This document shows, piece after piece, positions 1-15,214 of a stretch of 64,000 nucleotides of DNA. Every line of letters begins with the position of its first letter. Position 1 is the stretch's first letter. Position numbers and translations under genes: made by a program. The notes beneath the pieces were generated by a model, which saw only the letters and a program-made list of their open reading frames with translations, ran no database searches and was not told the DNA's origin. Source of the stretch: Escherichia phage slur07; sequence record NC_028780.1. One strand, 5' to 3'.

Positions 1-1
1 A

Positions 2-1126
2 GCGGACCTTGGATATCATCATGGCGAAAACTCTGCACAAGACGCAGGCGCTTTGATGGCTAATACTTGGAATAATAACTTTCCTTTGTTAGATGGTCAA
101 GGAAACTTCGGTTCTCGTACTGTCCAAAAGGCAGCAGCAAGTCGTTATATTTTTGCTCGTGTAAGTAAAAATTTCTATAACGTATATAAAGATACTGAAT
201 ATGCTCCGGTACATCAAGATAAAGAACACATTCCGCCTGCTTTCTATTTGCCTATTATTCCTACTGTTCTTCTTAATGGCGTTTCCGGTATTGCAACTGG
301 TTATGCAACTTACATTCTTCCTCATAGTGTTTCTTCTGTCAAGAAAGCTGTACTACAAGTTCTTCAAGGAAAGAAAGTAACTAAACCGAAGGTAGAATTC
401 CCAGAATTTCGTGGTGAAGTCGTTGAAATTGATGGGCAATATGAAATTCGTGGAACATATAAGTTTACTTCACGAACTCAAATGCACATCACTGAGATTC
501 CGTATAAGTATGATCGTGAAACTTATGTGAGTAAAATCTTAGACCCACTTGAAGATAAAGGCTTCATTACATGGGATGATGCTTGTGGTGAGCATGGTTT
601 TGGATTCAAAGTTAAATTCCGCAAAGAATATTCTTTGAGCGATAACGAAGAAGAACGCCATGCAAAAATTATGAAAGACTTCGGGTTGATTGAGCGTCGT
701 TCTCAGAATATTACGGTTATTAATGAGAAAGGAAAACTACAAGTTTACGATAACGTAGTTGATTTAATTAAAGACTTCGTTGAAGTTCGTAAAACTTATG
801 TCCAAAAACGAATTGATAACAAAATTAAAGAAACTGAATCAGCTTTTCGTTTAGCCTTTGCCAAGGCGCATTTCATTAAGAAAGTAATTTCAGGTGAAAT
901 TGTTGTACAGGGTAAAACTCGCAAAGAACTGACCGAAGAACTTTCTAAAATTGATATGTATTCTTCTTATGCTGATAAACTAGTTGGAATGAATATTTTT
1001 CATATGACTTCCGATGAAGCGAAGAAACTTGCTGAAGAAGCTAAAGCTAAGAAAGAAGAAAACGAATATTGGAAAACTACTGATGTAGTTACTGAATACA
1101 CTAAAGATTTAGAGGAAATCAAATGA
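2..1126 (+). CDS. 52: DNA topoisomerase II medium subunit gp52, 5'-truncated at window edge
   Basis: Open frame from position 2; GyrA-like LLDGQGNFGS motif; matches C-terminal part of T4 gp52; followed by motA as in T4. Confidence 0.9.
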   Translation, partial: ADLGYHHGENSAQDAGALMANTWNNNFPLLDGQGNFGSRTVQKAAASRYIFARVSKNFYNVYKDTEYAPVHQDKEHIPPAFYLPIIPTVLLNGVSGIATGYATYILPHSVSSVKKAVLQVLQGKKVTKPKVEFPEFRGEVVEIDGQYEIRGTYKFTSRTQMHITEIPYKYDRETYVSKILDPLEDKGFITWDDACGEHGFGFKVKFRKEYSLSDNEEERHAKIMKDFGLIERRSQNITVINEKGKLQVYDNVVDLIKDFVEVRKTYVQKRIDNKIKETESAFRLAFAKAHFIKKVISGEIVVQGKTRKELTEELSKIDMYSSYADKLVGMNIFHMTSDEAKKLAEEAKAKKEENEYWKTTDVVTEYTKDLEEIK

Positions 1127-1272
1127 GTCCATTCATTGGTATTACAAGCGCTGCATTAGTATCTGGTAGCATTTTACTAGCGGGGGTAGGTGTTGTTCCA
1201 GCCGTAGCAGGAGGTCTTCTTGCGTTCGGAATTCAACGTGTTATCATGACAGTTATCACAGTCATGCAGTAA
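1123..1272 (+). CDS. small hydrophobic membrane protein (49 aa), start overlaps gene 52 stop
   Basis: ATG at 1123 overlapping TGA of gene 52 (ATGA); translation MSPFIGITSAALVSGSILLAGVGVVPAVAGGLLAFGIQRVIMTVITVMQ is almost entirely one transmembrane helix; not in ORF track because under 60 aa. Confidence 0.45.
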   Translation: MSPFIGITSAALVSGSILLAGVGVVPAVAGGLLAFGIQRVIMTVITVMQ

Positions 1273-1277
1273 TTTTA

Positions 1278-1304
1278 GGGAGAGCCTCGGCTCTCCCTTT
1301 TTTA
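1278..1304 (+). terminator. intrinsic terminator (GC hairpin GGGAGAGCC/GGCTCTCCC plus T-run)
   Basis: Perfect inverted repeat followed by TTTTTTATTTT directly after the small ORF. Confidence 0.6.
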
Positions 1305-1328
1305 TTTTAAAAATTTTTTCACAAAACG

Positions 1329-1358
1329 GTTTACAACCAAAGCATACTGTGGTACTAT
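1329..1358 (+). promoter_or_regulatory. T4-type early (sigma70) promoter upstream of motA
   Basis: -35 GTTTACA at 1329-1335, 17-bp spacer, extended -10 TGgTACTAT at 1350-1358, A/T-rich upstream element; near-identical copy at 18519-18548. Confidence 0.55.
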
Positions 1359-1399
1359 ACAACTATCAACTACTGATACAGAATTACGGAGATTAGAAA

Positions 1400-2035
1400 A
1401 TGTCTAAAGTAACTTACATCATCAAAGCTTCTAACGATGTTCTGAATGAAAAAACTGCTGCGATTTTAATTACCATTGCTAAGAAAGATTTCATTACAGC
1501 CGCAGAAGTTCGTGAGGTGCATCCAGATTTAGGTAACGCAGTAGTTAATAGTAATATTGGGGTATTGATTAAAAAAGGCCTGGTGGAGAAATCTGGTGAT
1601 GGATTAATCATTACAGGTGAAGCTCAGGATATTATTTCAAATGCAGCAACTTTATACGCGCAGGAAAATGCTCCGGAACTGCTGAAAAAACGAGCAACTC
1701 GTAAAGCTCGTGAGATTACTTCCGATATGGAAGAAGATAAAGACCTCATGTTAAAACTTTTAGATGAAAATGGATTTGTTCTTAAAAAGGTTGAAACTTA
1801 TCGCAGTAACTATCTCGCTATTTTAGAAAAACGCACTCACGGAATTCGTAATTTTGAAATTAACAACAATGGAAATATGCGAATTTTTGGATATAAAATG
1901 ATGGAACATCATATTCAGAAATTTACTGACATCGGAATGTCATGTAAAATCGCTAAAAACGGTAATGTGTATCTTGACATTAAACGTTCGGCAGAAAACA
2001 TTGAAGCTGTAATCGCTGTAGCATCTGAACTGTGA
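1400..2035 (+). CDS. motA: MotA, middle-promoter transcription activator
   Basis: 211 aa, same length as T4 MotA and near-identical from MSKVTYIIKASNDVLNEK onward. Confidence 0.92.
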   Translation: MSKVTYIIKASNDVLNEKTAAILITIAKKDFITAAEVREVHPDLGNAVVNSNIGVLIKKGLVEKSGDGLIITGEAQDIISNAATLYAQENAPELLKKRATRKAREITSDMEEDKDLMLKLLDENGFVLKKVETYRSNYLAILEKRTHGIRNFEINNNGNMRIFGYKMMEHHIQKFTDIGMSCKIAKNGNVYLDIKRSAENIEAVIAVASEL

Positions 2036-2045
2036 GGAATAAATA

Positions 2046-2375
2046 ATGAACAAGTTAGAAATTGTTAATGAACTTCGTCGTTGCGCAGAACCTACTCAAG
2101 AGGGTTGGGACATCTGGTACCACGGAGCTTATCTTGGAACTATCGTAAAGATTAAGACCGGTAAATACATGATTATTCGTGAAAGTAAAGATGCTCCAGT
2201 AGGTATTCGCAATAATTTCATGGCAGCGATAAGTTCCTTTACAGATTCAGCTTACGAAATTTACCTTGCTGATTATAAAGAATTCCAGGAATCTCAACCA
2301 GTTATTCGTTCAATTGGTGTTAACAAAGCTCAACAGAAATCTTTGTGGCAGCGTATTAAAGGATGGTTTAAATGA
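2046..2375 (+). CDS. hypothetical protein (arn-motA variable region)
   Basis: 109-aa ORF, start 10 nt after motA stop, end overlaps next ORF start (ATGA). Confidence 0.6.
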
Positions 2376-2833
2376 ATCCATTTATTAATCGTTTAAAAAT
2401 GCTGAATGTTCCTTTATCTCGTGAAACTCCAGAAAGTCTTGTTGAAAAATTTAAAGCACATGGTTATAAATGCACAGAAGAAGATATTCTAAAAGAAGTT
2501 CCTGAAATCTGTTGGCAGACAGCATATTGGGATGAAAACCAAAAGTATCAACGACGAATTGTTTGCGCAGCCAACCGTTTTAAATTAAAAGATGGACGAA
2601 CTCTTGTTATTCCAGGTGCTCGTCATTATTCTAAAGATATGGCAGCAGTTTTAGATGTAGTTAAACCTCAATTAGTTACTCAGCAAGTTTGTGATGATGA
2701 CCAAGGGTTTATTGACCAATATAGTAATTATTGGACACGTGAAGAAGCAATGATTATTGCAACTTACGCTGGACAAGTACGTATTGAACGTGGTGGTAGT
2801 GAAAAAGAACTTTACTCTGAGGACCTTTACTAA
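2372..2833 (+). CDS. hypothetical protein (arn-motA variable region)
   Basis: 153-aa ORF translationally coupled to neighbours. Confidence 0.6.
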
Positions 2834-3129
2834 TGAATATTAAAAAGTTTCAAATTGATGGAATTACGAATCAAATCAAGGCGCTGGAATATGCCAATAA
2901 AATGATGTCAACCAAATGGGGAATTTATGCCAATGAACCGGCATTTCAGTTCTGTAATATGGAATTCACCAAAAAGCTCGTAGGAAAAGATTATGTATGT
3001 CCATTTAGTTCCCCAATAAATGGAATGCTAAAACCTGCTTTACGCGATCTTTATATTGCGATGAACGAAGAGATGATAAAAGAATTAAAACGTCAACTGA
3101 AGGTGATTCAATTTGGCCAGGGAAATTAA
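2833..3129 (+). CDS. hypothetical protein (arn-motA variable region)
   Basis: 98-aa ORF, start overlaps upstream stop. Confidence 0.55.
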   Translation: MNIKKFQIDGITNQIKALEYANKMMSTKWGIYANEPAFQFCNMEFTKKLVGKDYVCPFSSPINGMLKPALRDLYIAMNEEMIKELKRQLKVIQFGQGN

Positions 3130-3331
3130 TTCAAAATCTGATTATTTTAATTCTCTCAATGATAAAGATAAAAATCTAATACGGCATTTTATCGTTGAGA
3201 TGGGATATACTGATACACGTGATTTAAGAGAACATATATTTGAATGTGGTGTAGCTAAAAAGTTTTCATTCACATGCAAATGTTTGAGAGAGGTAATTCA
3301 GCACTATGAACAATTTAGTCGCAAAGCATAA
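3113..3331 (+). CDS. hypothetical protein
   Basis: 72-aa ORF overlapping upstream ORF by 17 nt; coding status uncertain. Confidence 0.4.
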   Translation: MAREINSKSDYFNSLNDKDKNLIRHFIVEMGYTDTRDLREHIFECGVAKKFSFTCKCLREVIQHYEQFSRKA

Positions 3332-3414
3332 TTTTAATAAAGCTTCTGTTCATAAAGATAAGAAGAAAGCGTTTAAAGAATCTAATCGCAAACAGAAACA
3401 TAAGGGGAAGGTCT

Positions 3415-3693
3415 ATGATTATTGATTCTCAGTCTGTGGTTCAATACACAATCAAAATTGATATTCTAGAAAAGCTATATAAGTTTCTACCAAATTTATA
3501 CCACTCAATTGTCAATGAATTAGTTGAAGAACTACATCTCGAGAATAATGATTTCTTGATTGGAACTTATAAAGACCTCTCAAAAGCAGGATATTTTTAC
3601 GTAATTCCAGCTCCAGGAAAAAGTATTGATGATGTATTAAAAACTATAATGATTTACGTCCATGATTATGAAATTGAAGATTATTTCGAATGA
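3415..3693 (+). CDS. arn: Arn, anti-restriction (McrBC inhibitor) protein
   Basis: 92 aa, same length and position (upstream of asiA) as T4 Arn; acidic C-terminus. Confidence 0.8.
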   Translation: MIIDSQSVVQYTIKIDILEKLYKFLPNLYHSIVNELVEELHLENNDFLIGTYKDLSKAGYFYVIPAPGKSIDDVLKTIMIYVHDYEIEDYFE

Positions 3694-3854
3694 GTCATAA
3701 TCTTGAAAAGGTAATCGAGCATAATGTAGCTCAGGAACGTAAGTCGTTCAAGGAATTCGTAGAAAAAATTTTTGAAGAAAATAACACAGACCAGTTTACA
3801 AATCAAGTGTCTGATGATATTATAATAAAGTCAACTAATTGAGTGGTATAGTTA

Positions 3855-4127
3855 ATGAATAAAAACATTGATACAGTTCGTGAAATTATTACTGTTGCGT
3901 CTATTTTGATTAAATTTTCCAGAGAAGATATTGTTGAGAATCGTGCTAATTTTATTGCATTTCTGAATGAGATTGGAGTAACGCATGAAGGTAGAAAGTT
4001 AAATCAGAATTCATTCCGTAAAATTGTTTCTGAATTAACCCAAGAAGATAAGAAAACCCTCATCGACGAATTCAACGAGGGTTTTGAGGGTGTATATCGA
4101 TATCTAGAGATGTATACGAACAAATAA
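3855..4127 (+). CDS. asiA: AsiA, anti-sigma70 factor
   Basis: 90 aa, essentially identical to T4 AsiA (MNKNIDTVREIITVASILIKFSREDIVENRANFIAFLNEIGVTHEGRKL...). Confidence 0.93.
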   Translation: MNKNIDTVREIITVASILIKFSREDIVENRANFIAFLNEIGVTHEGRKLNQNSFRKIVSELTQEDKKTLIDEFNEGFEGVYRYLEMYTNK

Positions 4128-4784
4128 TTATTTAGCCCTTCCTAATATTCTGGCCGCCTGAGCACATATTGATTCAAGGCGGTCATTACTTATATGATCA
4201 TTTCTATACCAGTACATGGTTATCGTTCCAGCATAGATATTATCCAAATTAAAATATGGACAACTGTACATATAGTTTATTTCGGGAGTAGGCTTTTTAG
4301 TTGGTAAAAAAGCAAATTTTGAGTTGGAATAATAATGACGTCCATTTAAATGAACTGTATATTCATCCATAGTTTTATCAACAGGATATCCTCCAAGTGA
4401 TTTTTCAGTTATTGTTGAAGGTAATCTTCCTTCATATGCTATAATATCAACAAAATAGTTTAAGTTTTTAGGGCGGAAAGAATACACCGCACTAAAGTCT
4501 GCCTCAGATGATATATGAACTATCTGGAGTTGTTCCAGGGCGACAGATTCAAAGCGTGCATTTCTTTCCTTTTCAATAATTTCACTGTATGTTTCATACT
4601 TTGATTGCTTATAGTACTCAAAGAAACTATCTCCCCTATACCAAACAATCGCCATCATAAATAAAAGAATTACGACAGCTACCCGGGAAGCAAGAACTTT
4701 CCCGGTAGCATTATCTTTGAACAAGCGATCTAGAACACCAAATAGAATATCAGAGGGCGAAAATGATATTCTAGGTGCTGCCAT
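4128..4784 (-). CDS. t: holin T
   Basis: 218 aa as in T4 holin; single N-proximal TMD with large periplasmic domain; convergent with asiA, stop codons abutting. Confidence 0.9.
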   Translation of the reverse strand: MAAPRISFSPSDILFGVLDRLFKDNATGKVLASRVAVVILLFMMAIVWYRGDSFFEYYKQSKYETYSEIIEKERNARFESVALEQLQIVHISSEADFSAVYSFRPKNLNYFVDIIAYEGRLPSTITEKSLGGYPVDKTMDEYTVHLNGRHYYSNSKFAFLPTKKPTPEINYMYSCPYFNLDNIYAGTITMYWYRNDHISNDRLESICAQAARILGRAK

Positions 4785-4816
4785 AGACCCTCCTTTTAAG
4801 GATATTTATTCAAAAA

Positions 4817-5608
4817 TTATACTCTTGAACCATATATTGTGCCAACTTTAGTCCAAGTTGGAGCGTTACCAGTAACAGCTTTACCAGCCGCACCGCCCGA
4901 GTGAACAGTTCCTCCAGTACCACCTTGAATATATGAAGACTTGCCAGCAGCTCCCAAATCTCCACCATTTCCTCCATAGTGAACCCCAGAAACAGTACCT
5001 TTACCAGGAGCAGAAATTGTACCAGCAGATGCTGCCGCCGCGCCACCTCCTGCTGCGCCAGCTGCGCCAAATGGACGACCGCCGCCGCCACCAAATATCA
5101 TATCCATTTGAGGGAAAGGATGGTATCTAGCGCCAGCGCCGCCACCGCCACCGCCACCAATAATACCATTATTGTTTATTCTTAAACGAGTTCCAATTCC
5201 GTTATTTATTGCAGTTCCTCCTGCTCCACCAGCAGAGTTACTTCCGCCATTTCCTCCCCGACCTAATACATGAACCCCACTATTAATATTTAAGGTAACA
5301 TATGCATTAGTTAATGAACTAGGAAAATCTAAGCAAGGTTGCCCAGCTGATGAAGAAACAATATTTCCTGTAATAGTAACAACAACAGGAGTACTACCTT
5401 GAGATTTGAGATAATTTATTAGCGTGTCTTTATTATATGAATTACTAGCGCCAATACTGTAATATACTTCTTTAGATTGCCCAGCCATTGAACTCATCCA
5501 ACCGGGAACTGAAACACGAACTGCTCTCATCGCAGCATCCATCCAACGTTGTCCAGTTTCATTCACGGCAGATTCGCCAATCCAGCCAGGAACACCTACA
5601 ATTGCCAT
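4817..5608 (-). CDS. 38: gp38 long-tail-fibre adhesin, T2/T6 type with glycine-rich motifs
   Basis: 263 aa; N-terminus MAIVGVPGWIG..AVNETGQRWM conserved with T2-type gp38; several poly-Gly tracts (GGGGGGGAG, GGGGGRPFG) separating variable segments; immediately downstream of gene 37. Confidence 0.85.
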   Translation of the reverse strand: MAIVGVPGWIGESAVNETGQRWMDAAMRAVRVSVPGWMSSMAGQSKEVYYSIGASNSYNKDTLINYLKSQGSTPVVVTITGNIVSSSAGQPCLDFPSSLTNAYVTLNINSGVHVLGRGGNGGSNSAGGAGGTAINNGIGTRLRINNNGIIGGGGGGGAGARYHPFPQMDMIFGGGGGRPFGAAGAAGGGAAAASAGTISAPGKGTVSGVHYGGNGGDLGAAGKSSYIQGGTGGTVHSGGAAGKAVTGNAPTWTKVGTIYGSRV

Positions 5609-5638
5609 TAAAAATCCTTAGAGGGCCGAAGCCCTCTT

Positions 5639-5938
5639 TTACATAAGTTTAGATTCAAGTTCTTTTACACGAGAAGAAAGTGTTTTCACAGCTTCAACCA
5701 GAAGAGCAATCTGGGATTGAGAAGAAACAGTGAGTATTTTATTACCCTTAATATCTTCAACTTCACGAACTGCTTCTGGTAAAACATCTTGCAGTGTTTG
5801 AGCCACAATACCCGCTTCAGTTTGAACAATTTCACCGCCTATATAGTCAGCTTTATCATAGATTAAACCATCAAGCTGTTCAACCTTTTCAAGAGCATTT
5901 TCAATAGGTCTGAAATTAGATTTCAAACGAATATCAGA
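5639..5938 (-). other. C-terminal intramolecular chaperone-like domain of gp37 (endosialidase-CTD type, predicted autocleavage)
   Basis: Last ~99 aa begin SDIRLKSNFRPIENALEKVEQLDGLIYDK, resembling the S-D-x-R-L-K start of self-cleaving tail-fibre chaperone domains; motif recalled from memory. Confidence 0.5.
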
Positions 5939-8900
5939 ACGAATATAAACGTTTGGGGCATTTATATTCATGTCAGAATAAGTGTCACCCGTTTGGAATC
6001 TCATTCGGCGTGCGGCATTAGTAATGATATCAAGAACTCCGTCAGCGGATTGTTTAATTCCGGTATCATTATCACCAAATGCTATACTATTTCCACCAAG
6101 TGCGTTATTGATATTAATACCAAATGAATTTGTTTGATTAATACCAGCTACAGTAGCATTATTTACTACAAAGCGGTTAGCTCCACCTGGAGTTTTTTCA
6201 AAGTAAGCAATATAGTTAGTTTCATCTGCAATTTCAATGCGGTTACCGCGAGAAGCATCACCAGCATGAAATATTCTCATATTTCTCGGGTTAGCACCAG
6301 ACTTATCAAAGTTAATACTTCCATTATTTTTGATGTTAAGGCCATTATAAAACTCTGATACCCCAGAAACGCTCATAGAGTTTGAAATAGTTACTTTACC
6401 TGAATCGATATTGATAGAAAAAGGTCTCAAGCTATTATAAGAACCGGAGGCTTTAGTTTTATCAGTATCGGTATTTTTATCTGTTAATAATATATGGAAC
6501 GTAGTACCATCATTATAAAACAGAGCAGCTGCAGAGCCACTTTCGTCGCCGTTAGATTTGTGACGGAATCCTATAGTAGTATTTGCCACAAAAGTTGCAT
6601 TTGTAGAAATATTAGAACTACCTGCATCAAAAACGCCTGAGCTATTATTAAGAAGTTTAAAAACACGACCTTTAACAGTATCTACAGGAAGCTCTTCTAC
6701 TGGTGATTGTGTAGGCCCATATAATCCATGAACTACTACTGAAGCGTTTTCTGAAGTGCTATATTCTAATGTAAGTCTATTTAAATAAGTGCCACAATTA
6801 ATATAAACATCATACTCATCGCCTGAGGTATTAATATACGCAATATCTTTAATAGCATCTGTTTCGCGTTGCCATAAAACACCATTAATTCCTTTAGGGC
6901 TGTTATTACCTGAACGCAATACAATTTCATTAATTGTTGCTTGTCTAAAAGTACCAACGTTAAATCCAGAACCACCAGTAATTTTAAATTGAACTGTAGC
7001 CACACCTTGAGGCATAGTTACTGTTGCCAATTTATACCAACCGCTATCGACAGAATAATTAATCCAGCCGGTAGTTACTTTACGGTCTAAAGTAGTGTTT
7101 AAGTTAGCAAAATTACCAGAACCGTTGGTAATATTACCGTCAGTTCCTAGTTGGGCATTTCCGACTTTAAGAGGTTTACTGATTGACACGAAATTATCGC
7201 TTATAACAAGACCGTGTCCATAAGATTGACTATAAAGCGATAAATCACTTCCAGCGCCACCAAGACCAACATACCACGATCTAATTCCAGCTTTAGAACC
7301 TTGTAAATAATTAGCAGAAGAAGATGAAGGAGAATCTAGAGTAAGCGCTGCATTACGTTCATTAATAGTTACTGGACATATCATTTTAATAGTTTTAAGA
7401 CTATTACTTACTTGTAATAATCCTGTACCAGATCCAGAATCTCCTAAATGAACATCATGCGACATTTTAACTGTGCCGGTGTTCAGTTCTATTATCAATG
7501 GTCTAAGATTACTTATACCACCTGATTCTCCAGCATCTTTAAGAGTTGGAATAATATAAAAGTTACTTTCAGAACGACGGAAAATTGCGCCGTATTCAGC
7601 ATTCCAAATTCTTAATGCGTCAGCTGTTCCACCAATTTTTACTTGGCCTGTAATAGAAGAACCACCTTGGACAAACAAACCGTTAGACATAGTAACATTG
7701 CCACCAAAAGAACCTGTACCGGAGGCACTTATATTACCAAGGCCTATGATATGGCCTGTTTCGACAGTTCCGTTAAATTTAAAGTTAACCGGACCTACTG
7801 TTTGACCTGACGCAGGATTAGTACGTTGAGCGTAGAAATAATAACCTTGTGAATCTGAAACTTCGAATACAGTTTCTCTATTACCCTTTTCAGCGTTAAA
7901 TGAATTACCCCATGCTTTAATGGTTACGGTATTTTTATTCTGACCATTACGAGTACCTGCATCCCAGTTAATGGTTTTGGTACCATCTACACCGGAAGGA
8001 GCTTTAAACGATAAAGCATTAGTATTATCATCACCATTTAAAAACAAGCCCGTACGCATAGAAATACGCTGGGTGGAGTTAATTGTTCCGTCTGCTCTAA
8101 TAGCAACGCTATTAGAACCGGTTTTAATATCTAAAATGCCAGGCTCAACAAGAAGCCCATCACCCATACTAACGGACATACGACCTGTACCACGGAAATA
8201 GTGATACATCTTAGCATTGCTGCTATATCCGATATGAGTCTGTCCATCGCCGTTATTATTACCATCAACATCGGTACGCGCAGTAAACATTGCTTGGTTA
8301 TTATTTGGGAAATCCCAAGTAGAACCGGAATCTCGACTATAACCAACCATCAATTTTTTAGTACTATTAATACCATTATTCAAAATGGTAGCAGATGAAA
8401 TACCGTTAGCCATCAGGTCATAAACGCCATCGCGGACCCATTTAATACCGGTATCGTTATCGCCAATCGCAATACCAATAGAAATTGCAGAATCTAAAGG
8501 ATAACGACCATTTGTACCACTATCAGGAAGACCTACAGAAATAGATTTACCTGCAGTAATACGTCCAGAGGTATCAAACGCCCACTGGAAAGACGAAGGT
8601 CCTACACCAGTCCACCAAGAAATTTCTTGCGGCTTACCTTTTCGACAATCAACAATTTCATGGAAAATACTTGATGCGCTTGATGCACGTAATTTACGCA
8701 AATAGTTCAATCCATTTGTAGTATTGTCGGAACCATCGGCCGGTGGGTTATAAACCCAGGTAGGTAAAGAAACAATGTCATAACCCGCGTCATTATTCGG
8801 GATAAAGGTTTTCGTGCTTATGTTAATATTTTTTGTGTTGACACGTGGCGCAGAAACTACCCCAGTAGCCGAATTAATATTACCAGAAGCAGAAATATTT

Positions 8901-9442
8901 CCATCTGTTACTGTCAAACTTCCTGTATCAACAACAAATCCACCATCTCTACGAAATGTCCAGTATTTTGAAGTTCCCGATTCATTGATATAATGAATTT
9001 TAAAACTTCCTTCGTTTACTAGCGTACCAACAGAAAAAGTCCCATCTTTATAACGCTGTTTAATTAGCGGATGGTATTCTGAAGTAGAAGTAGTTGAACT
9101 TAAATCTGTAAAAATAGGGGCTTTATTTAGGTGTTGATTTGCCCAAGCGCCATTACCTGCAGTTTTAGGTAAAAATTCAATATATTTTCCTGCATAAACA
9201 AACTGATTTCCATTGAGATTATATGTACCGTTCTGTAAATAATCTCCAGTTTGAGTGATATTTCCACTGATATTACCGCCAGTGGAAATGCTTAAATCAA
9301 TGATATTTCCTGAATCATCTTTAGTAAAAAGTGTTCTATCTTTTAAGTTTATAGCCAATTCACCTTCGGCTAATACTGAAGCAGCAGGACGTGCACCTGC
9401 GGTTTTGCTTCTTTTAAATTGTATTTGTTTTAAAGTAGCCAT
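5639..9442 (-). CDS. 37: gp37 long-tail-fibre distal subunit
   Basis: 1267 aa; N-terminus MATLKQIQFKRSKTAGARPAASVLAEGELAINLKDRTLFTKDDSGNIIDL matches T4/T2 gp37; C-terminus differs from T4 (no His-box tip). Confidence 0.92.
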   Translation of the reverse strand: MATLKQIQFKRSKTAGARPAASVLAEGELAINLKDRTLFTKDDSGNIIDLSISTGGNISGNITQTGDYLQNGTYNLNGNQFVYAGKYIEFLPKTAGNGAWANQHLNKAPIFTDLSSTTSTSEYHPLIKQRYKDGTFSVGTLVNEGSFKIHYINESGTSKYWTFRRDGGFVVDTGSLTVTDGNISASGNINSATGVVSAPRVNTKNINISTKTFIPNNDAGYDIVSLPTWVYNPPADGSDNTTNGLNYLRKLRASSASSIFHEIVDCRKGKPQEISWWTGVGPSSFQWAFDTSGRITAGKSISVGLPDSGTNGRYPLDSAISIGIAIGDNDTGIKWVRDGVYDLMANGISSATILNNGINSTKKLMVGYSRDSGSTWDFPNNNQAMFTARTDVDGNNNGDGQTHIGYSSNAKMYHYFRGTGRMSVSMGDGLLVEPGILDIKTGSNSVAIRADGTINSTQRISMRTGLFLNGDDNTNALSFKAPSGVDGTKTINWDAGTRNGQNKNTVTIKAWGNSFNAEKGNRETVFEVSDSQGYYFYAQRTNPASGQTVGPVNFKFNGTVETGHIIGLGNISASGTGSFGGNVTMSNGLFVQGGSSITGQVKIGGTADALRIWNAEYGAIFRRSESNFYIIPTLKDAGESGGISNLRPLIIELNTGTVKMSHDVHLGDSGSGTGLLQVSNSLKTIKMICPVTINERNAALTLDSPSSSSANYLQGSKAGIRSWYVGLGGAGSDLSLYSQSYGHGLVISDNFVSISKPLKVGNAQLGTDGNITNGSGNFANLNTTLDRKVTTGWINYSVDSGWYKLATVTMPQGVATVQFKITGGSGFNVGTFRQATINEIVLRSGNNSPKGINGVLWQRETDAIKDIAYINTSGDEYDVYINCGTYLNRLTLEYSTSENASVVVHGLYGPTQSPVEELPVDTVKGRVFKLLNNSSGVFDAGSSNISTNATFVANTTIGFRHKSNGDESGSAAALFYNDGTTFHILLTDKNTDTDKTKASGSYNSLRPFSINIDSGKVTISNSMSVSGVSEFYNGLNIKNNGSINFDKSGANPRNMRIFHAGDASRGNRIEIADETNYIAYFEKTPGGANRFVVNNATVAGINQTNSFGININNALGGNSIAFGDNDTGIKQSADGVLDIITNAARRMRFQTGDTYSDMNINAPNVYIRSDIRLKSNFRPIENALEKVEQLDGLIYDKADYIGGEIVQTEAGIVAQTLQDVLPEAVREVEDIKGNKILTVSSQSQIALLVEAVKTLSSRVKELESKLM

Positions 9443-9450
9443 AAGTCCTC

Positions 9451-10116
9451 TTAATAATAGCCGAAATCTTGAACAGAATCCTTAATTACGATTTGGTCAA
9501 ATCGTGGAACATGTGAAGGTTGAGATGCAGGATTCTGCGAGAAAAAGTTTGGTGCGGTTAAGTTTCCCGTCATAGTGTCACCAGATCGTAACACTCTAGA
9601 GTTTGCATTTGCTGTAACAGTATTTATTGCTCCATCAACATAGTCCTTTCTAGTAAGGTCATTCGCTGCTATAGGAGCAGCCGCATCACTTCTTACTTGA
9701 CCAGCTGCCGACACAACACCTTTTGTGCTAATATCACCATTGCGTGTATTAATTACTACAGTTCTACCGGCAGATCCTTGTGATGATTTAAATCCTACGC
9801 CATACCATGAAACAATATCAATATTTGCTGTAACAAAAGTAGCTGCATCTCCATTACCAGGATAAATACCACTTTGGTTTGTATTGTTTATAGCATATGG
9901 TACTTGAACACCAGCATTAAATGTTACCTTTGATGCATAAGTACCACCGTTAGCTTTAGAAACGAAATCGTTATCTGCAGCTTGTGGTTTGTTATATTCT
10001 GAATATATTTTAAATGATTTATAGAGTACATCGTCACCGGCCGGATTCAATGGAAAATTTCCTTGATGCCAAATGACAGAGCCTCCAGTTGTTGAACCTA
10101 CTTTTAAATCAGCCAT
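9451..10116 (-). CDS. 36: gp36 long-tail-fibre hinge connector
   Basis: 221 aa, near-identical to T4 gp36 (MADLKVGSTTGGSVIWHQGNFPLNPAGDDVLYKSF...). Confidence 0.92.
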   Translation of the reverse strand: MADLKVGSTTGGSVIWHQGNFPLNPAGDDVLYKSFKIYSEYNKPQAADNDFVSKANGGTYASKVTFNAGVQVPYAINNTNQSGIYPGNGDAATFVTANIDIVSWYGVGFKSSQGSAGRTVVINTRNGDISTKGVVSAAGQVRSDAAAPIAANDLTRKDYVDGAINTVTANANSRVLRSGDTMTGNLTAPNFFSQNPASQPSHVPRFDQIVIKDSVQDFGYY

Positions 10117-10178
10117 TGTATGCCCCTTTATTTTAATAGTATTTATAAAGAAAAAGGGAACCCGAAGGCTCCCTCAAT

Positions 10179-11294
10179 TTATACTTCTCTAAATTCTTGC
10201 CCAAACACTTTACCAGTTTTAGACGATGCTTGTGTAGGAAGTACCATTATATCCGGAGGTGAAGCAGATTCACAGATATAATTAACACGAATGCCGTTGA
10301 CGCCAAATTCAGCGGGTTTTGAAATTCCGCCATTTCTTGATACTTCAGAAAAGCTTAAATTTCGCATACCGCCTTGTCCCGCTTGAGCAGTTCTTTGTGC
10401 ATATATCGTAAATCCAACTGCATTTTCTGGAACAACTACATAATCTTCCTTTAATTCCCAAGACCCAGCTTGTCCAATAAACTCAGCTTGTGTCGAGGAA
10501 ATATATCCGTTAGATGCATTATAAAAACGGATAGATATATTTGTTGTTCCAAGAGCAAGTAAATCGGCATCAGCATATAACTGGGCTTTAAGATAAAGAA
10601 CGTCACCAGGAATTAAATTATAATCAGAGAGTTTACTTATAGCAGCTGAAGTTGGTAGACGCGCAATTTCGTTATTAGTTCCACCAACCGCTGACATGAA
10701 TTGCTCAACGCTTTCATACGTTCTTCTTGGAAACCCGGTAGCTCCGACGTCTTCTAAACTGTCAAATACAACATCTAAAATAGTTTGATAATCATCTGTG
10801 CTTTTTCTATTACTCAGTTTAACATGCTCTAATGCAATAGCTCTTTTAGAAGAAGTATAAAAAGCAGCATATGATACGTCGAATCTTGACAATATAGAGT
10901 CAGATGGAAAAGCAGACGTTCCGGCGATTCTTAACCAAGATACTACTTCAGGAGGAAAATTAACCTTTCCGTTAGTTAATATAGCAACAATTCGATTATT
11001 CGTCAAAGAATTCATGAAACTAACAAAGGCAGCTGATGTAGTATCATTTGAAGTCGAAAAAGCATATGATTTACTATCAACTAATGCTCCGGTGGAAGGG
11101 TCAAAAACTCTTAAATGAAGGCCTGCGCTAAATGTTTGACTTCCTACAGGATTATCCTGAAATTTAACGTATGGTCCTGCTGTAGAAAGCGGGCAAGAAC
11201 CCGCTATGCTTATTTTATATCTTACTGAATTGCTTTCCGATAAAAATGGCGTTTGGACATATCCTTGTCCAAACTCTGCCATAAATTTTTCCAT
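10179..11294 (-). CDS. 35: gp35 long-tail-fibre hinge protein
   Basis: 371 aa, matches T4 gp35 in sequence and position. Confidence 0.9.
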   Translation of the reverse strand: MEKFMAEFGQGYVQTPFLSESNSVRYKISIAGSCPLSTAGPYVKFQDNPVGSQTFSAGLHLRVFDPSTGALVDSKSYAFSTSNDTTSAAFVSFMNSLTNNRIVAILTNGKVNFPPEVVSWLRIAGTSAFPSDSILSRFDVSYAAFYTSSKRAIALEHVKLSNRKSTDDYQTILDVVFDSLEDVGATGFPRRTYESVEQFMSAVGGTNNEIARLPTSAAISKLSDYNLIPGDVLYLKAQLYADADLLALGTTNISIRFYNASNGYISSTQAEFIGQAGSWELKEDYVVVPENAVGFTIYAQRTAQAGQGGMRNLSFSEVSRNGGISKPAEFGVNGIRVNYICESASPPDIMVLPTQASSKTGKVFGQEFREV

Positions 11295-11302
11295 AATACC
11301 TC

Positions 11303-14300
11303 TTATTCAACCCATTCAAATTTAACAGTTTTATTCACTGGGTCAGGAATAATGCGAACATTACCAATTCGTAAGAAATCACGAATAGTAAGATTCCCCA
11401 TTGTAGCATTATCAGATGGTAAAGCACCGATATCAGATGGTTGAGGAGGGTTACCTCCGTCAAATACCTGAACAAAACTTGACCAAGAGTTTTTGGTTTT
11501 CTGCCATGTACGTGTCCAGCGAGTGGTACGCGCTTCTGGTGTCGTTGGATAAGTAATCCAATCTTGGTAAAGCGAATCAAGTGTGTTACCAAACTGTGTC
11601 AGTGTACCAGGAGATTTAACTTCTTCGCCACGTTCTAAGTATGGAAGCCCAGTCACTTCATTAGTTTTTTCAACCATTTTAAAATAACCTGGGAACTGGT
11701 TATAAGTGGCTGAATCGTTAATATCGATTGACCAGAATCCTACAGTATCAGATGTTGGCGCACGGGTATATAAATCAGATGTTTTAGTACCCTGAGAACG
11801 AATTCTCGAGTTAACAGTCAAACCACCTGAATTTATAGTAGCACCTTTGGCAATGATTAAGCTTTCACCAATTGTGACTTGACCGGATTGATTATTAATT
11901 GATAATGGACGTAATCCATTAAATCCACCGGTCTGATCACCAGATGCAGTAAGCATAAAATTCGTTACTGACCCATCATTGCGAACAATGAAACCATAAT
12001 TTCCGTTAATAGCACGGAAAGCATTTGCGTTTCGAGATATAATTTCACCAGTTGCTGTGACTGAACTACCGAATGTTGCTACACCATTCGCAGTCAATGT
12101 GCCTGAAGCATTCACATTTATCGGTGTTACTGTACCGTTGATATTAAATGTTATATTTCCAGCTTTATTGCGCTGGGAATAAAAATGACTAGACGTTTCA
12201 TCACCAACTTCAAATACAGTAGAACGTGTTGTATCTGAACCGCCGCCAAACTGATTTCCCCAAACTCTAATAGTCATCGTCTGTGCTGGGTTAGTTCCAG
12301 TTTGAGGTCCTTTCTCAAAAATCAGACGAGTTGCCGTTCCAGTATTAGAAATAGTTAATGTACTATTTGCCGAAACTGAACCACCAAACGCAGCAGTACT
12401 AGATGATACAAGAGGGGCACTCAGATTCGTTTGTTGGGTTAAGGTTAGTGAACCATTAACCGTCTGTGCAATATCCCTACGAATGAACTGAGATGAATCT
12501 AGACCATCCAATAAATTACTATCTACAGCTTTTGCTTTTAACGGCAAATAATTTGCTAATACACGGTTTAATTCATATGGTGATACTGCATAGCTATTTT
12601 TCTCATACAGTTCTAAATCTTGGGTAGAACCGACTGTATCATTACCAACGAATGTAATTGAACCAGATGAAGTTTTAACAAAACCTCTTATCGCAGTAGT
12701 AGCTGCCCAGGTAGGTTCACTCTGCACAATCCATTTTAAATTTTTTGGAGATACAGCAGTATTTGCTGACGTTCCAGTCACAGTTTCAGACTGAGTTGCA
12801 ACTTTAATAACACCTTCCTGTGATTCGGTAGATTTAGTACCTAAAAGCTTTTTAGGAGTTATTAAAACATTATCTAATGTTCCTGCAGCAGCTTCGACCT
12901 GTGTAGCTACACGAAGTGTACCACGCTGTGTCTCATTTGCTTCAAGAATATTAAGGGTATAATGGTCCCAGAGAGTTCCTGATTCAACTAATCCAGATAG
13001 AGCAACAACAGAAGTACGATCAGTACTATTAAATCTAGTTTTAATTTTTAATGGTGTAGAGATACGAGTATCGTCGACGCCTGCGTCGAATTCAACCTGT
13101 GTAGCAATTTCAGCTATACCACTTAAACCTTCAGTTGCTCTACGGTCATTTAAAGTTTTAGGAGTGACTGCACGAGTATAATCAGTTCCTGTATTAACTT
13201 CACTTTGCGTAGCAATTTCAATTAAACCAATTCTTGCATCAGTTGATGTCTTTTTGTGTAACGTTTCTGGCGTTACAACAGCATTTGCCCATCCTTCCTG
13301 ACTTTGTCCAGCAATTACTTCACTTTCAACTGCTAAAATTACCGCACCTTGCTGTGTTGGAGTAGCTTTATACTGATCCAAAGCTTTAGGTGAAACAACT
13401 AAATTATTAGTGTTTTTATTATAAACATTCGTACCATTTAATTCACGGCTAGAAGCTGGAGTAGCACCTGCAGTAGATACAAAAGTTACAATACCAGATA
13501 ATGATTCAGAACCTTGGCGAGCTTGAAGCTTTTTAGGAGTGATGATTGTAGTATCATCAGTACCTGTATTAGTTTCTTGCTGCGTAGCAATTTCAGCAAC
13601 ACCTCTACGAGTTTCTGTAGCAGTTCTTTCATTCAGCTTTTTAGGAGTAATGATAAGGTCATCTGCAAAAGAGAATGTGGTGTTCTGATTCACTTGAGCA
13701 GTAGTTGCTATTCTTGCAATACCTCTGCGAGTTTCAGTAGCAGTACGGTTAGCTAATGTTTCTGGAGTAATTGCTAATTCTTTTTGTGGAGAATTTTCTA
13801 AATCGACATTAGCTTGAGCTTGTGTAGCTAAAGCAATTACGCCTAATCTTGCTCTAGTAGAATCATTTAAAGAATCAACTCTTTCTACAGTTGGAACGTT
13901 TTGCTGTACAACCCAGTATTTTCCATCAGAATCTTCTATATAAGCAAGTTGTAAAACTGGAACATAATTAGTTTCACCGTTAAAAACTAATTCTTGAACT
14001 GTAACCCATTCAGCTTCAGGTGGATATTCTGAGCGTTTTGGGAATTGCAGTAATTGAACTGAAGAAGCAATTTTATCTTCGCCCGCAGCTTTGATTTTAA
14101 CTGTTTGTCCTTTTCTCATGTAATTCATGGAAATTTTAACAGTATCACCAACAGAAATATTAGTTGGAAGCTGAAGCTCAATTGTTTGAGTTGTTCCGTT
14201 ATTCGCACCAAATACCATGACTTCTTCGTTTGGACGAATATTAGAATTAGTCGTTATAATGCGTAAACGTGCTTTACTATCCCCGTCAAACAATCTCCAC

Positions 14301-15172
14301 AATTTCTCATTATCATCAAACATCAAGAAACCGTCAATTGATGTACGGCCTTCAATGGAATGAGTTCCAACTTCTTGTACTGAAGTCGTTTCATCGTATG
14401 TAGTAACAATTGTATGATAAAGTGGATTCAGTTTATCTAAATCAACGAAATTAATAATATCTCCATGATTAGCAAATCTTGGAAGTTTAATATTTATCGG
14501 TGCGGCAGAAGTAAATCTACGCACGATAAAATCGTTTGATTGCGCCTGATAGAGACTCGCAGGCGTTACAACTATAGCTTCTCTACTATAATCAGCAACA
14601 TACATTTGCCACAGACGATTACTAAAAATTAAAACTAGCTGTGACTTTGGATGAGTCATTAGTACTGAACGTACTTGTTCACCTCTAAAGTTTACAATAC
14701 TTTGTACTGGAGCTACAATTAAAACTTGGTTAACTCCAGGTTTTCCTCCAATATCTTGGAGAACGATAGTATCTCCATCAATTGGAGAAGATGGTAAAGT
14801 AAACGTGATGTCATTTCCAGTTGCAGTATTAACCGAAATAGCTTCACCGGATTTTAATTGATATGAACCAGATGAAACCGTAATCCAGTTTGCGTCTGTA
14901 CGTAATGCTCTCCAGCGCCCGCTATTAAAAGCTCCTGCCGGTTTTGGAATATCATTTATAGCAGCCCAAAAGCGGTTATCATAAATGATTACAAAATCTT
15001 TTAAATATCCACGAGTTGGATCATATTGTTGAACTGTGTTTTCTTGAATTAAGTAATCAACGTTAACACCGTCAGTTCCTACGGTACGATCAGCTAAAGC
15101 TACGTTGATTATTTTATCGCCACCTGCGTCCAGACCGTCTTCTGCTCTGAACTTTCTTTTAATCTCGGCCAT
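11303..15172 (-). CDS. 34: gp34 long-tail-fibre proximal subunit
   Basis: 1289 aa, same length as T4 gp34; N-terminus MAEIKRKFRAEDGLDAGGDKIINVALADR. Confidence 0.93.
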   Translation of the reverse strand: MAEIKRKFRAEDGLDAGGDKIINVALADRTVGTDGVNVDYLIQENTVQQYDPTRGYLKDFVIIYDNRFWAAINDIPKPAGAFNSGRWRALRTDANWITVSSGSYQLKSGEAISVNTATGNDITFTLPSSPIDGDTIVLQDIGGKPGVNQVLIVAPVQSIVNFRGEQVRSVLMTHPKSQLVLIFSNRLWQMYVADYSREAIVVTPASLYQAQSNDFIVRRFTSAAPINIKLPRFANHGDIINFVDLDKLNPLYHTIVTTYDETTSVQEVGTHSIEGRTSIDGFLMFDDNEKLWRLFDGDSKARLRIITTNSNIRPNEEVMVFGANNGTTQTIELQLPTNISVGDTVKISMNYMRKGQTVKIKAAGEDKIASSVQLLQFPKRSEYPPEAEWVTVQELVFNGETNYVPVLQLAYIEDSDGKYWVVQQNVPTVERVDSLNDSTRARLGVIALATQAQANVDLENSPQKELAITPETLANRTATETRRGIARIATTAQVNQNTTFSFADDLIITPKKLNERTATETRRGVAEIATQQETNTGTDDTTIITPKKLQARQGSESLSGIVTFVSTAGATPASSRELNGTNVYNKNTNNLVVSPKALDQYKATPTQQGAVILAVESEVIAGQSQEGWANAVVTPETLHKKTSTDARIGLIEIATQSEVNTGTDYTRAVTPKTLNDRRATEGLSGIAEIATQVEFDAGVDDTRISTPLKIKTRFNSTDRTSVVALSGLVESGTLWDHYTLNILEANETQRGTLRVATQVEAAAGTLDNVLITPKKLLGTKSTESQEGVIKVATQSETVTGTSANTAVSPKNLKWIVQSEPTWAATTAIRGFVKTSSGSITFVGNDTVGSTQDLELYEKNSYAVSPYELNRVLANYLPLKAKAVDSNLLDGLDSSQFIRRDIAQTVNGSLTLTQQTNLSAPLVSSSTAAFGGSVSANSTLTISNTGTATRLIFEKGPQTGTNPAQTMTIRVWGNQFGGGSDTTRSTVFEVGDETSSHFYSQRNKAGNITFNINGTVTPINVNASGTLTANGVATFGSSVTATGEIISRNANAFRAINGNYGFIVRNDGSVTNFMLTASGDQTGGFNGLRPLSINNQSGQVTIGESLIIAKGATINSGGLTVNSRIRSQGTKTSDLYTRAPTSDTVGFWSIDINDSATYNQFPGYFKMVEKTNEVTGLPYLERGEEVKSPGTLTQFGNTLDSLYQDWITYPTTPEARTTRWTRTWQKTKNSWSSFVQVFDGGNPPQPSDIGALPSDNATMGNLTIRDFLRIGNVRIIPDPVNKTVKFEWVE
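12805..13765 (-). repeat. in-frame tandem peptide repeats within gp34 (approximate bounds)
   Basis: At least six repeat units of type (I/V)TP(E/K)(T/K)L..R.ATE..G(I/V)..IAT in the translated protein. Confidence 0.45.
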
Positions 15173-15206: not shown

Positions 15207-15214
15207 TATTTATA
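15207..15214 (-). promoter_or_regulatory. late promoter (TATAAATA) for gene 34
   Basis: Plus-strand TATTTATA = minus-strand TATAAATA about 35 nt upstream of gene 34 start. Confidence 0.5.

Follow-up and report, generated by a model that had tools for sequence, protein, structure and literature searches.

Distal end of a T2-type long tail fibre in Escherichia phage slur07: a gp37 ending in a probable Peptidase S74 chaperone and a gp38 adhesin predicted to recognise Tsx

Which protein recognises the host in a T-even phage with this fibre operon, which outer-membrane protein is its likely receptor, and how is the end of the fibre matured before it can bind? The question is raised by positions 4817-5938 of the window (the whole stretch of DNA analysed, 64,000 nucleotides), which hold gene 38, a 30-nt spacer, and the final 99 codons of gene 37 with its stop. 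We propose, with a probability of about 0.9, that this region encodes the distal receptor-recognising end of a T2-type T-even (Tequatrovirus) long tail fibre, with an S74 chaperone on gp37 and a gp38 that binds Tsx. According to this model, gp37 would be made as a 1267-aa precursor, the last 99 residues of which would form a Peptidase S74 intramolecular chaperone driving the beta-helical fibre to trimerise and fold. The chaperone would then release itself by a cut between R1168 and S1169, S1169 acting as the nucleophile and K1174 as the base, thus baring the ...NVYIR end of the gp37 trimer. One copy of gp38 would dock on this trimer end via its N-terminal helical bundle and residues W9, W22, and W37, and its polyglycine-sandwich domain would present four hypervariable loops to an outer-membrane protein, predicted to be the nucleoside channel Tsx. 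The cleavage, docking, and Tsx-binding steps of this model are drawn from homology.

The feature itself is already known and, for a T-even phage, textbook biology. Over their full lengths, both proteins are identical to annotated slur07 proteins, gp38 to YP_009197208.1 ("tail fiber protein; host specificity") and gp37 to YP_009197209.1 ("long tail fiber protein distal subunit"), and the feature is thus present, with correct annotation, in public databases. Cattle slurry was the source of slur07, with E. coli K-12 MG1655 as the isolation host (PMC4698387), and a literature search for this phage returned no data on its receptor, virion proteome, or gp37 cleavage. Nothing here is conceptually new: the glycine-rich and hypervariable design of gp38, the processing of gp37, and the S74 chaperone are well described, and the prediction of a receptor from gp38 similarity has been demonstrated before. 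What our study adds, from sequence alone, is a predicted receptor (Tsx), a putative maturation site at R1168/S1169, and a probable cassette junction at codons 98-103 of gene 38. Its value is that of annotation, giving a probable receptor together with the exact position at which gp37 would be matured, which is useful for phage cocktail design and for forecasting resistance via the loss of tsx.

The ORF calls on the window place the genes on the minus strand in the order 34, 35, 36, 37, 38, and t, i.e., gene 34 (11303-15172), gene 35 (10179-11294), gene 36 (9451-10116), gene 37 (5639..9442), gene 38 (4817..5608, with its stop codon at 4817-4819), and the holin gene t (4128..4784; Pfam Phage_holin_T, E = 1.1e-116), which lies directly 3' of gene 38. 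Gene 37 encodes the 1267-aa distal subunit of the long tail fibre, as a precursor of 135.6 kDa, and gene 38 the 263-aa, 25.5-kDa receptor-recognising adhesin of the fibre tip. Gene 38 sits directly between gene 37 upstream and t downstream, as expected for an adhesin-type gp38. T4 late-promoter motifs (TATAAATA) precede gene 36 and gene 34 on the same strand (10140-10147 and 15207-15214, respectively). In DNA searches, the window falls in Tequatrovirus, with ~96 to 97% identity to many T-even coliphages across a conserved 24-kb stretch, and REP1 is the best match over the fibre-tip region (93.8%).

The gene order is also that of T4, and the products of the neighbouring genes are closely related to their T4 counterparts (gp34, 95% identity; gp35, 98%; gp36, 93%; and the t product, 98% by BLASTP). 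The first-pass annotation, a model's reading of the letters and their open reading frames, had described a T2/T6-type receptor-recognition module in an otherwise T4-like fibre operon. The T4-like character of the rest of the operon and the architecture of the module both stand, but the emphasis needs correcting, since most T-even phages have the adhesin gp38 arrangement and it is T4 that departs from it (PMC6851490, PMC3157838). Hence, the locus contains no surprising insertion.

The identity of gp38 as a glycine-rich adhesin is supported by matches to Pfam GP38 (PF05268; E = 3.8e-68, 230 bits, cut-off 25) and Gp38_N (PF21721; E = 8.2e-18, 64.6 bits, cut-off 25) and to PHROG 2056, "tail fiber protein; host specificity" (E = 3.8e-100). 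Over residues 8-261, gp38 also matches the structure of S16 gp38 (PDB 6F45_D; E = 3.2e-49), and it matches one more solved gp38, fused to GFP (9V85; E = 3e-31). Neither gp38 nor gp37 has a model in NCBIfam. We aligned the window protein with gp38 of T2, T6, AV114, Bas43 (TadeuszReichstein), KIT06, and REP1. The N-terminal attachment domain (aa 1-46; 5471..5608, minus strand) is of the T2 subtype, with 45 of its 46 residues identical to T2 and 30 of 46 to T6, which has its own attachment subtype (65% identity). Residues W9, W22, and W37 of this domain are invariant across the alignment and match the positions of the S16 tryptophans, the prongs by which S16 gp38 docks on gp37 (PMC6851490).

The receptor-binding domain was delimited by motif positions and alignment to aa 115-245 (4874..5266, minus strand). 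It carries five Gly-rich motifs, namely GRGGNGG (116-122), G7 (151-157), G5RPFG (173-181), and the C-terminal pair GGNGG (212-216) and GGAAG (238-242), and glycine makes up 34% of residues 115-263. The differences among relatives cluster between these motifs, in hypervariable segments (HVS) at about 123-150, 158-172, 182-211, and 217-237. The proposal of the first-pass annotation that host specificity should map to the segments between the glycine tracts of gp38 agrees with what is established for this family (PMC3157838; bioRxiv 10.64898/2026.04.02.716166). The composition of this part of gene 38 is visible at the DNA level, where the GC content peaks at 0.49 at 4751-5250 because the gene is rich in GGN codons there. 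Many GenBank records name adhesin-type gp38 "distal long tail fiber assembly catalyst" or "tail assembly protein"; these labels are legacy names transferred from T4 gene numbering, and the T4 gp38 is an unrelated protein.

For the receptor, an alignment of gp38 with T2 and T6 had been suggested, and its outcome, once AV114, Bas43, KIT06, and REP1 were included, points to Tsx. Residues 96-263, which contain all the Gly-rich motifs and hypervariable loops, are identical to AV114 at 168 of 168 positions and to Bas43 at 167 of 168, the sole difference being Q228K. Within the binding domain proper (115-245), identity is 131/131 to AV114, 130/131 to Bas43 and to KIT06, 60% to T6, and 47% to T2. AV114 and AV115 do not infect a tsx deletion mutant and are, therefore, Tsx dependent (PMC10844046), while Bas43 has Tsx as its primary receptor and the LPS deep core as its terminal receptor (PMC8594841, supplementary file 5); the latter assignment comes from a supplementary table, the Bas43 receptor not being given in the main text of the BASEL paper. 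A 2025 paper on gp38 does not mention phages AV109, AV114, and AV115. As closely related gp38 sequences bind the same receptor (PMC12032242), and since the loops of the window protein are identical to those of the Tsx-dependent AV114 and one residue away from those of Bas43, the primary receptor of the window phage is predicted to be Tsx.

Of the two typed phages, AV114 is a Mosigvirus and thus belongs to another genus, whereas Bas43 is a Tequatrovirus; both have the same gp37 junction as the window (NVYIR/SDIRLK, the slash marking the predicted cut), but their gp37 shafts differ widely from that of the window, with 45 to 85% nucleotide identity over most of the gene. Outside the loops, Bas43 gp38 differs at nine positions within residues 28-90, which with Q228K makes 10 substitutions. 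T6 also uses Tsx and has a related HVS2 (YHPFPQMDMIF versus YSPFPQMRLTF), but it carries another Tsx-binding allele. T2 has the same gp37/gp38 architecture but recognises FadL and OmpF, and a receptor different from that of T2 is expected here because the binding domains are only 47% identical.

Near-identity alone would be weak evidence for a receptor, because single changes in the HVS can switch it and because AV108, the gp38 of which is similar to that of AV114, nonetheless uses OmpA (PMC10844046). A swap of gp38 from HVS2 onward suffices to switch porin specificity, and the single HVS substitution Q206L turns OmpF recognition into OmpW recognition (bioRxiv 10.64898/2026.04.02.716166). The fibre tip could thus have the architecture described above and a receptor that is not Tsx, or not only Tsx, either OmpA or a dual Tsx/OmpA/LPS usage as in PST, which is a few HVS residues away from T6 and gains OmpA dependence (PMC3157838). 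The window gp38 does differ from AV114 gp38 at 10 positions. However, all of these lie within residues 28-90, in the attachment and beta-helix parts and not in the loops, while AV114 has exactly the same four hypervariable segments and Gly-rich motifs (100% identity), and Bas43, which was typed independently as Tsx dependent, differs there by one residue. We therefore consider another or an additional receptor unlikely. The full identity of the binding domain to that of AV114 makes the call of Tsx stronger, as a sequence-based prediction, than near-identity would.

Turning to the protein on which gp38 would dock, gp37 matches PHROG 1699 (E = 1e-301) and three Pfam families, gp37_trimer, Gp34_trimer, and Peptidase_S74. 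The last of these bears on the idea, already put forward in the first-pass annotation, that the segment beginning SDIRLK is a self-cleaving intramolecular chaperone, for which a profile search against the endosialidase-chaperone family had been suggested as a check. SDIRLK starts at gp37 residue 1169, the Ser codon being at 5936-5938, and the tail is exactly 99 aa long. This tail matches Peptidase_S74 (PF13884, "chaperone of endosialidase") with an E value of 2.9e-15 (56.7 bits, cut-off 22), over model positions 1-58 of 58, starting at S1169 and lying at the extreme C terminus of gp37. Like the GP38 and Gp38_N matches of gp38, it is much stronger than chance could give. Within full-length gp37, the E value is 7.5e-14, and both queries give 52 to 57 bits against the cut-off of 22. 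The search thus supports the idea, as does the alignment with the S16 cleavage site described below. The predicted chaperone covers aa 1169-1267 (10.9 kDa; 5639..5938 with the stop, minus strand), and its core domain in the Pfam envelope covers aa 1169-1226 (5765..5938, minus strand), including the putative nucleophile S1169 and K1174.

The end of gp37 together with the chaperone matches the S16 gp37 structure (6F45; E = 4.7e-8) in the PDB search, while phmmer with the tail alone gives weak matches only (6F45_A, 0.004; MYRF, 0.014). A profile of four tail sequences matches the tail fibre 8JOV (5e-7), MYRF 7DC3 (7e-7), and the GA-1 neck appendage chaperone 3GUD (0.016), its match to 6F45 being circular because the S16 sequence is part of the profile. 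The solved GA-1 chain 3GUD_A starts at the Ser that aligns with S1169. The gp37 tail shares its S-D-x-R-x-K start with S74 domains such as those of the K1F endosialidase, GA-1, and MYRF, and would likewise continue into a C-terminal helical segment, but members outside the tail-fibre group are distant (profile E values of 7e-7 to 0.016), and the domain in the window is shorter, at 99 aa. The Peptidase S74 family has a Ser/Lys catalytic dyad, listed in MEROPS as Ser911/Lys916 of the K1F endosialidase. S1169 and K1174 fit this pattern, with Lys five residues after Ser, and all four defined residues of the S-D-x-R-x-K motif are shared without change by the window, T2, T6, and S16. A single-sequence AlphaFold2 prediction of gp37 residues 1135-1267 gave a model of too low quality to show the fold of the tail (pLDDT 44, pTM 0.35).

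The position of the cut is suggested by homologous fibres. In the tip complex of Salmonella phage S16, which is the solved homologue of both parts of the window tip (PDB 6F45) and in which the tryptophan prongs and the cleavage motif are kept, the last 113 residues of gp37 autocleave at DLNVS/SDRRIKK, baring the docking surface for gp38, and the junction in fPS phages reads DVYIR/SDGRLK (PMC7917993). S16 differs by its hypervariable loops, its longer chaperone, and a cut after Ser where the window would have Arg. By alignment to the proven S16 site and to the fPS junction, we infer an autocleavage site at R1168/S1169 (NVYIR/SDIRLK; 5936..5941, minus strand), which would yield a mature gp37 of aa 1-1168 (124.7 kDa; 5939..9442, minus strand) and a 10.9-kDa fragment. 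T2 gp37 is 1341 aa long, against 1267 aa here, and has the identical NVYIR/SDIRLK junction, with 86 of the 99 tail residues identical, and the last 10 residues of mature gp37 are the same in both phages. The statement in the first-pass annotation that T2 gp37 is C-terminally processed agrees with the literature, where proteolytic processing is documented (Drexler 1986, as cited in PMC3157838). T6 differs by carrying a 113-aa chaperone on a gp37 of 994 aa. By analogy with S16 (PMC7917993, PMC6851490), the terminal strand ...NAPNVYIR is predicted to form the docking surface for gp38.

Cleavage of the window protein is predicted from its homologues, and the C-terminal 99 residues of gp37 might in principle stay in the virion, uncleaved, either capping the fibre structurally or serving to bind gp38. 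We regard this as highly improbable and rejected it, because the Ser/Lys motif is intact and the homologous gp37 of S16 (PMC7917993) and, as cited in PMC3157838, of T2 are cleaved; moreover, S16 gp38 docks on the very surface that is freed by the loss of the chaperone (PMC7917993). A self-removing chaperone thus remains our preferred reading of the gp37 tail.

The tip of T4 is built differently, as T4 gp37 itself binds the receptor through a His-box tip. The first-pass annotation had noted that this tip is lacking here, and three results agree: the window gp37 has no HxH motif (the iron-binding repeat of the T4 tip), compared with eight in T4 gp37; only its residues 1-786 align to T4 gp37 in BLASTP, with 41% identity and an end at T4 residue 803; and no T4 gp37 tip structure was found among the gp37 matches in the PDB at E<=0.01. 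A T4-type fibre tip, made of a His-box needle and a gp38 chaperone, was rejected for want of HxH motifs, of homology to the T4 tip (~800-1026), and of homology to T4 gp38. That gp38 would be a T4-style assembly chaperone missing from the virion, leaving receptor binding to gp37, has a negligible probability, because the "tail assembly protein" and "distal long tail fiber assembly catalyst" labels of some close homologues are legacy transfers of the T4 name, whereas gp38 has no BLASTP match to the T4 gp38 chaperone even at an E value of 10, strongly matches the adhesin family and the S16 adhesin structure, and is paired with a gp37 without the T4 receptor-binding tip. This agrees with the first-pass call of the adhesin type rather than the T4 chaperone.

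The comparison of genes 37 and 38 with their nearest relatives revealed a mosaic structure. From 7519 down to 5301, there is no mismatch to REP1, and this block of 2.2 kb (100% identity) takes in gene 37 from around codon 640 onward, the spacer, and codons 1-102 of gene 38. In the DNA of the gp38 binding domain, identity to REP1 drops sharply to 67 to 88%, while from 5317 downward the identity to AV114, Bas43, and KIT06 is 92 to 98%; clustered mismatches to AV114/Bas43 end at 5318, with only sparse differences beyond it. REP1-like identity resumes in the last part of gene 38 and in t. Mismatch positions and sliding identity thus place a recombination junction inside gene 38 at about codons 98-103 (5301..5317, minus strand), shortly before the first Gly-rich motif. 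Conserved motifs and their surroundings are, according to published work, where exchanges take place (PMC3157838), and the junction fits this view.

Relative to its nearest relative REP1, the gp38 binding domain of the window phage is, as read from these alignments, a recombinant cassette. One account of its origin is a very recent natural exchange of the receptor-binding cassette alone, at codons 98-103, to an AV114/Bas43/KIT06-type allele, and we consider the chances of this account evenly balanced. The binding domain of REP1 is more T6-like than that of the window, with closely similar HVS2-4, so the swap may have taken place between two Tsx-type alleles. If the REP1 and AV114-like alleles recognise different variants of the Tsx loops, this locus would represent a field case of same-receptor allele swapping that tunes the host range.

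The N-terminal half of gene 37 (7520-9300) shows patchy identity to all relatives compared, 74 to 98% to REP1 and KIT06 and lower to the others, and gene 37 therefore has further mosaic segments. Two regions of gp37 resemble other fibre proteins: aa 700-773 (7125-7343) match the T7 gp17 structures 4A0T and 4A0U (E of about 6e-5) and Pfam gp37_trimer, and aa 517-651 form a Gp34_trimer-like region. Such segments are tail-fibre modules common to unrelated phages.

Beyond the fibre operon, positions 1-4127 carry early genes on the plus strand, in the opposite direction, with a gene order as in T2 and T4. The window begins inside gene 52 (topoisomerase II medium subunit), after which come motA (1400-2035; 211 aa), several small ORFs of the arn region, arn (3415-3693), and asiA (3855-4127). 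Neither tRNA genes (ARAGORN) nor Rfam families at their gathering score were found anywhere in the 64 kb.

Stable intercistronic hairpins are known from T4 mRNA. A scan for terminator-like structures placed a hairpin with a C(UUCG)G tetraloop in the 30-nt spacer between genes 37 and 38 (5620..5637, minus strand; folding energy of -13.4 kcal/mol), and it is probably one of this type. The sequence AAGGA, which directly follows the hairpin, likely serves gene 38 as its ribosome-binding site. T2, AV114, KIT06, and REP1 have exactly the same hairpin, and Bas43 differs by a single base immediately beyond the stem; an equivalent is present in T4, and T6 has a different hairpin instead.
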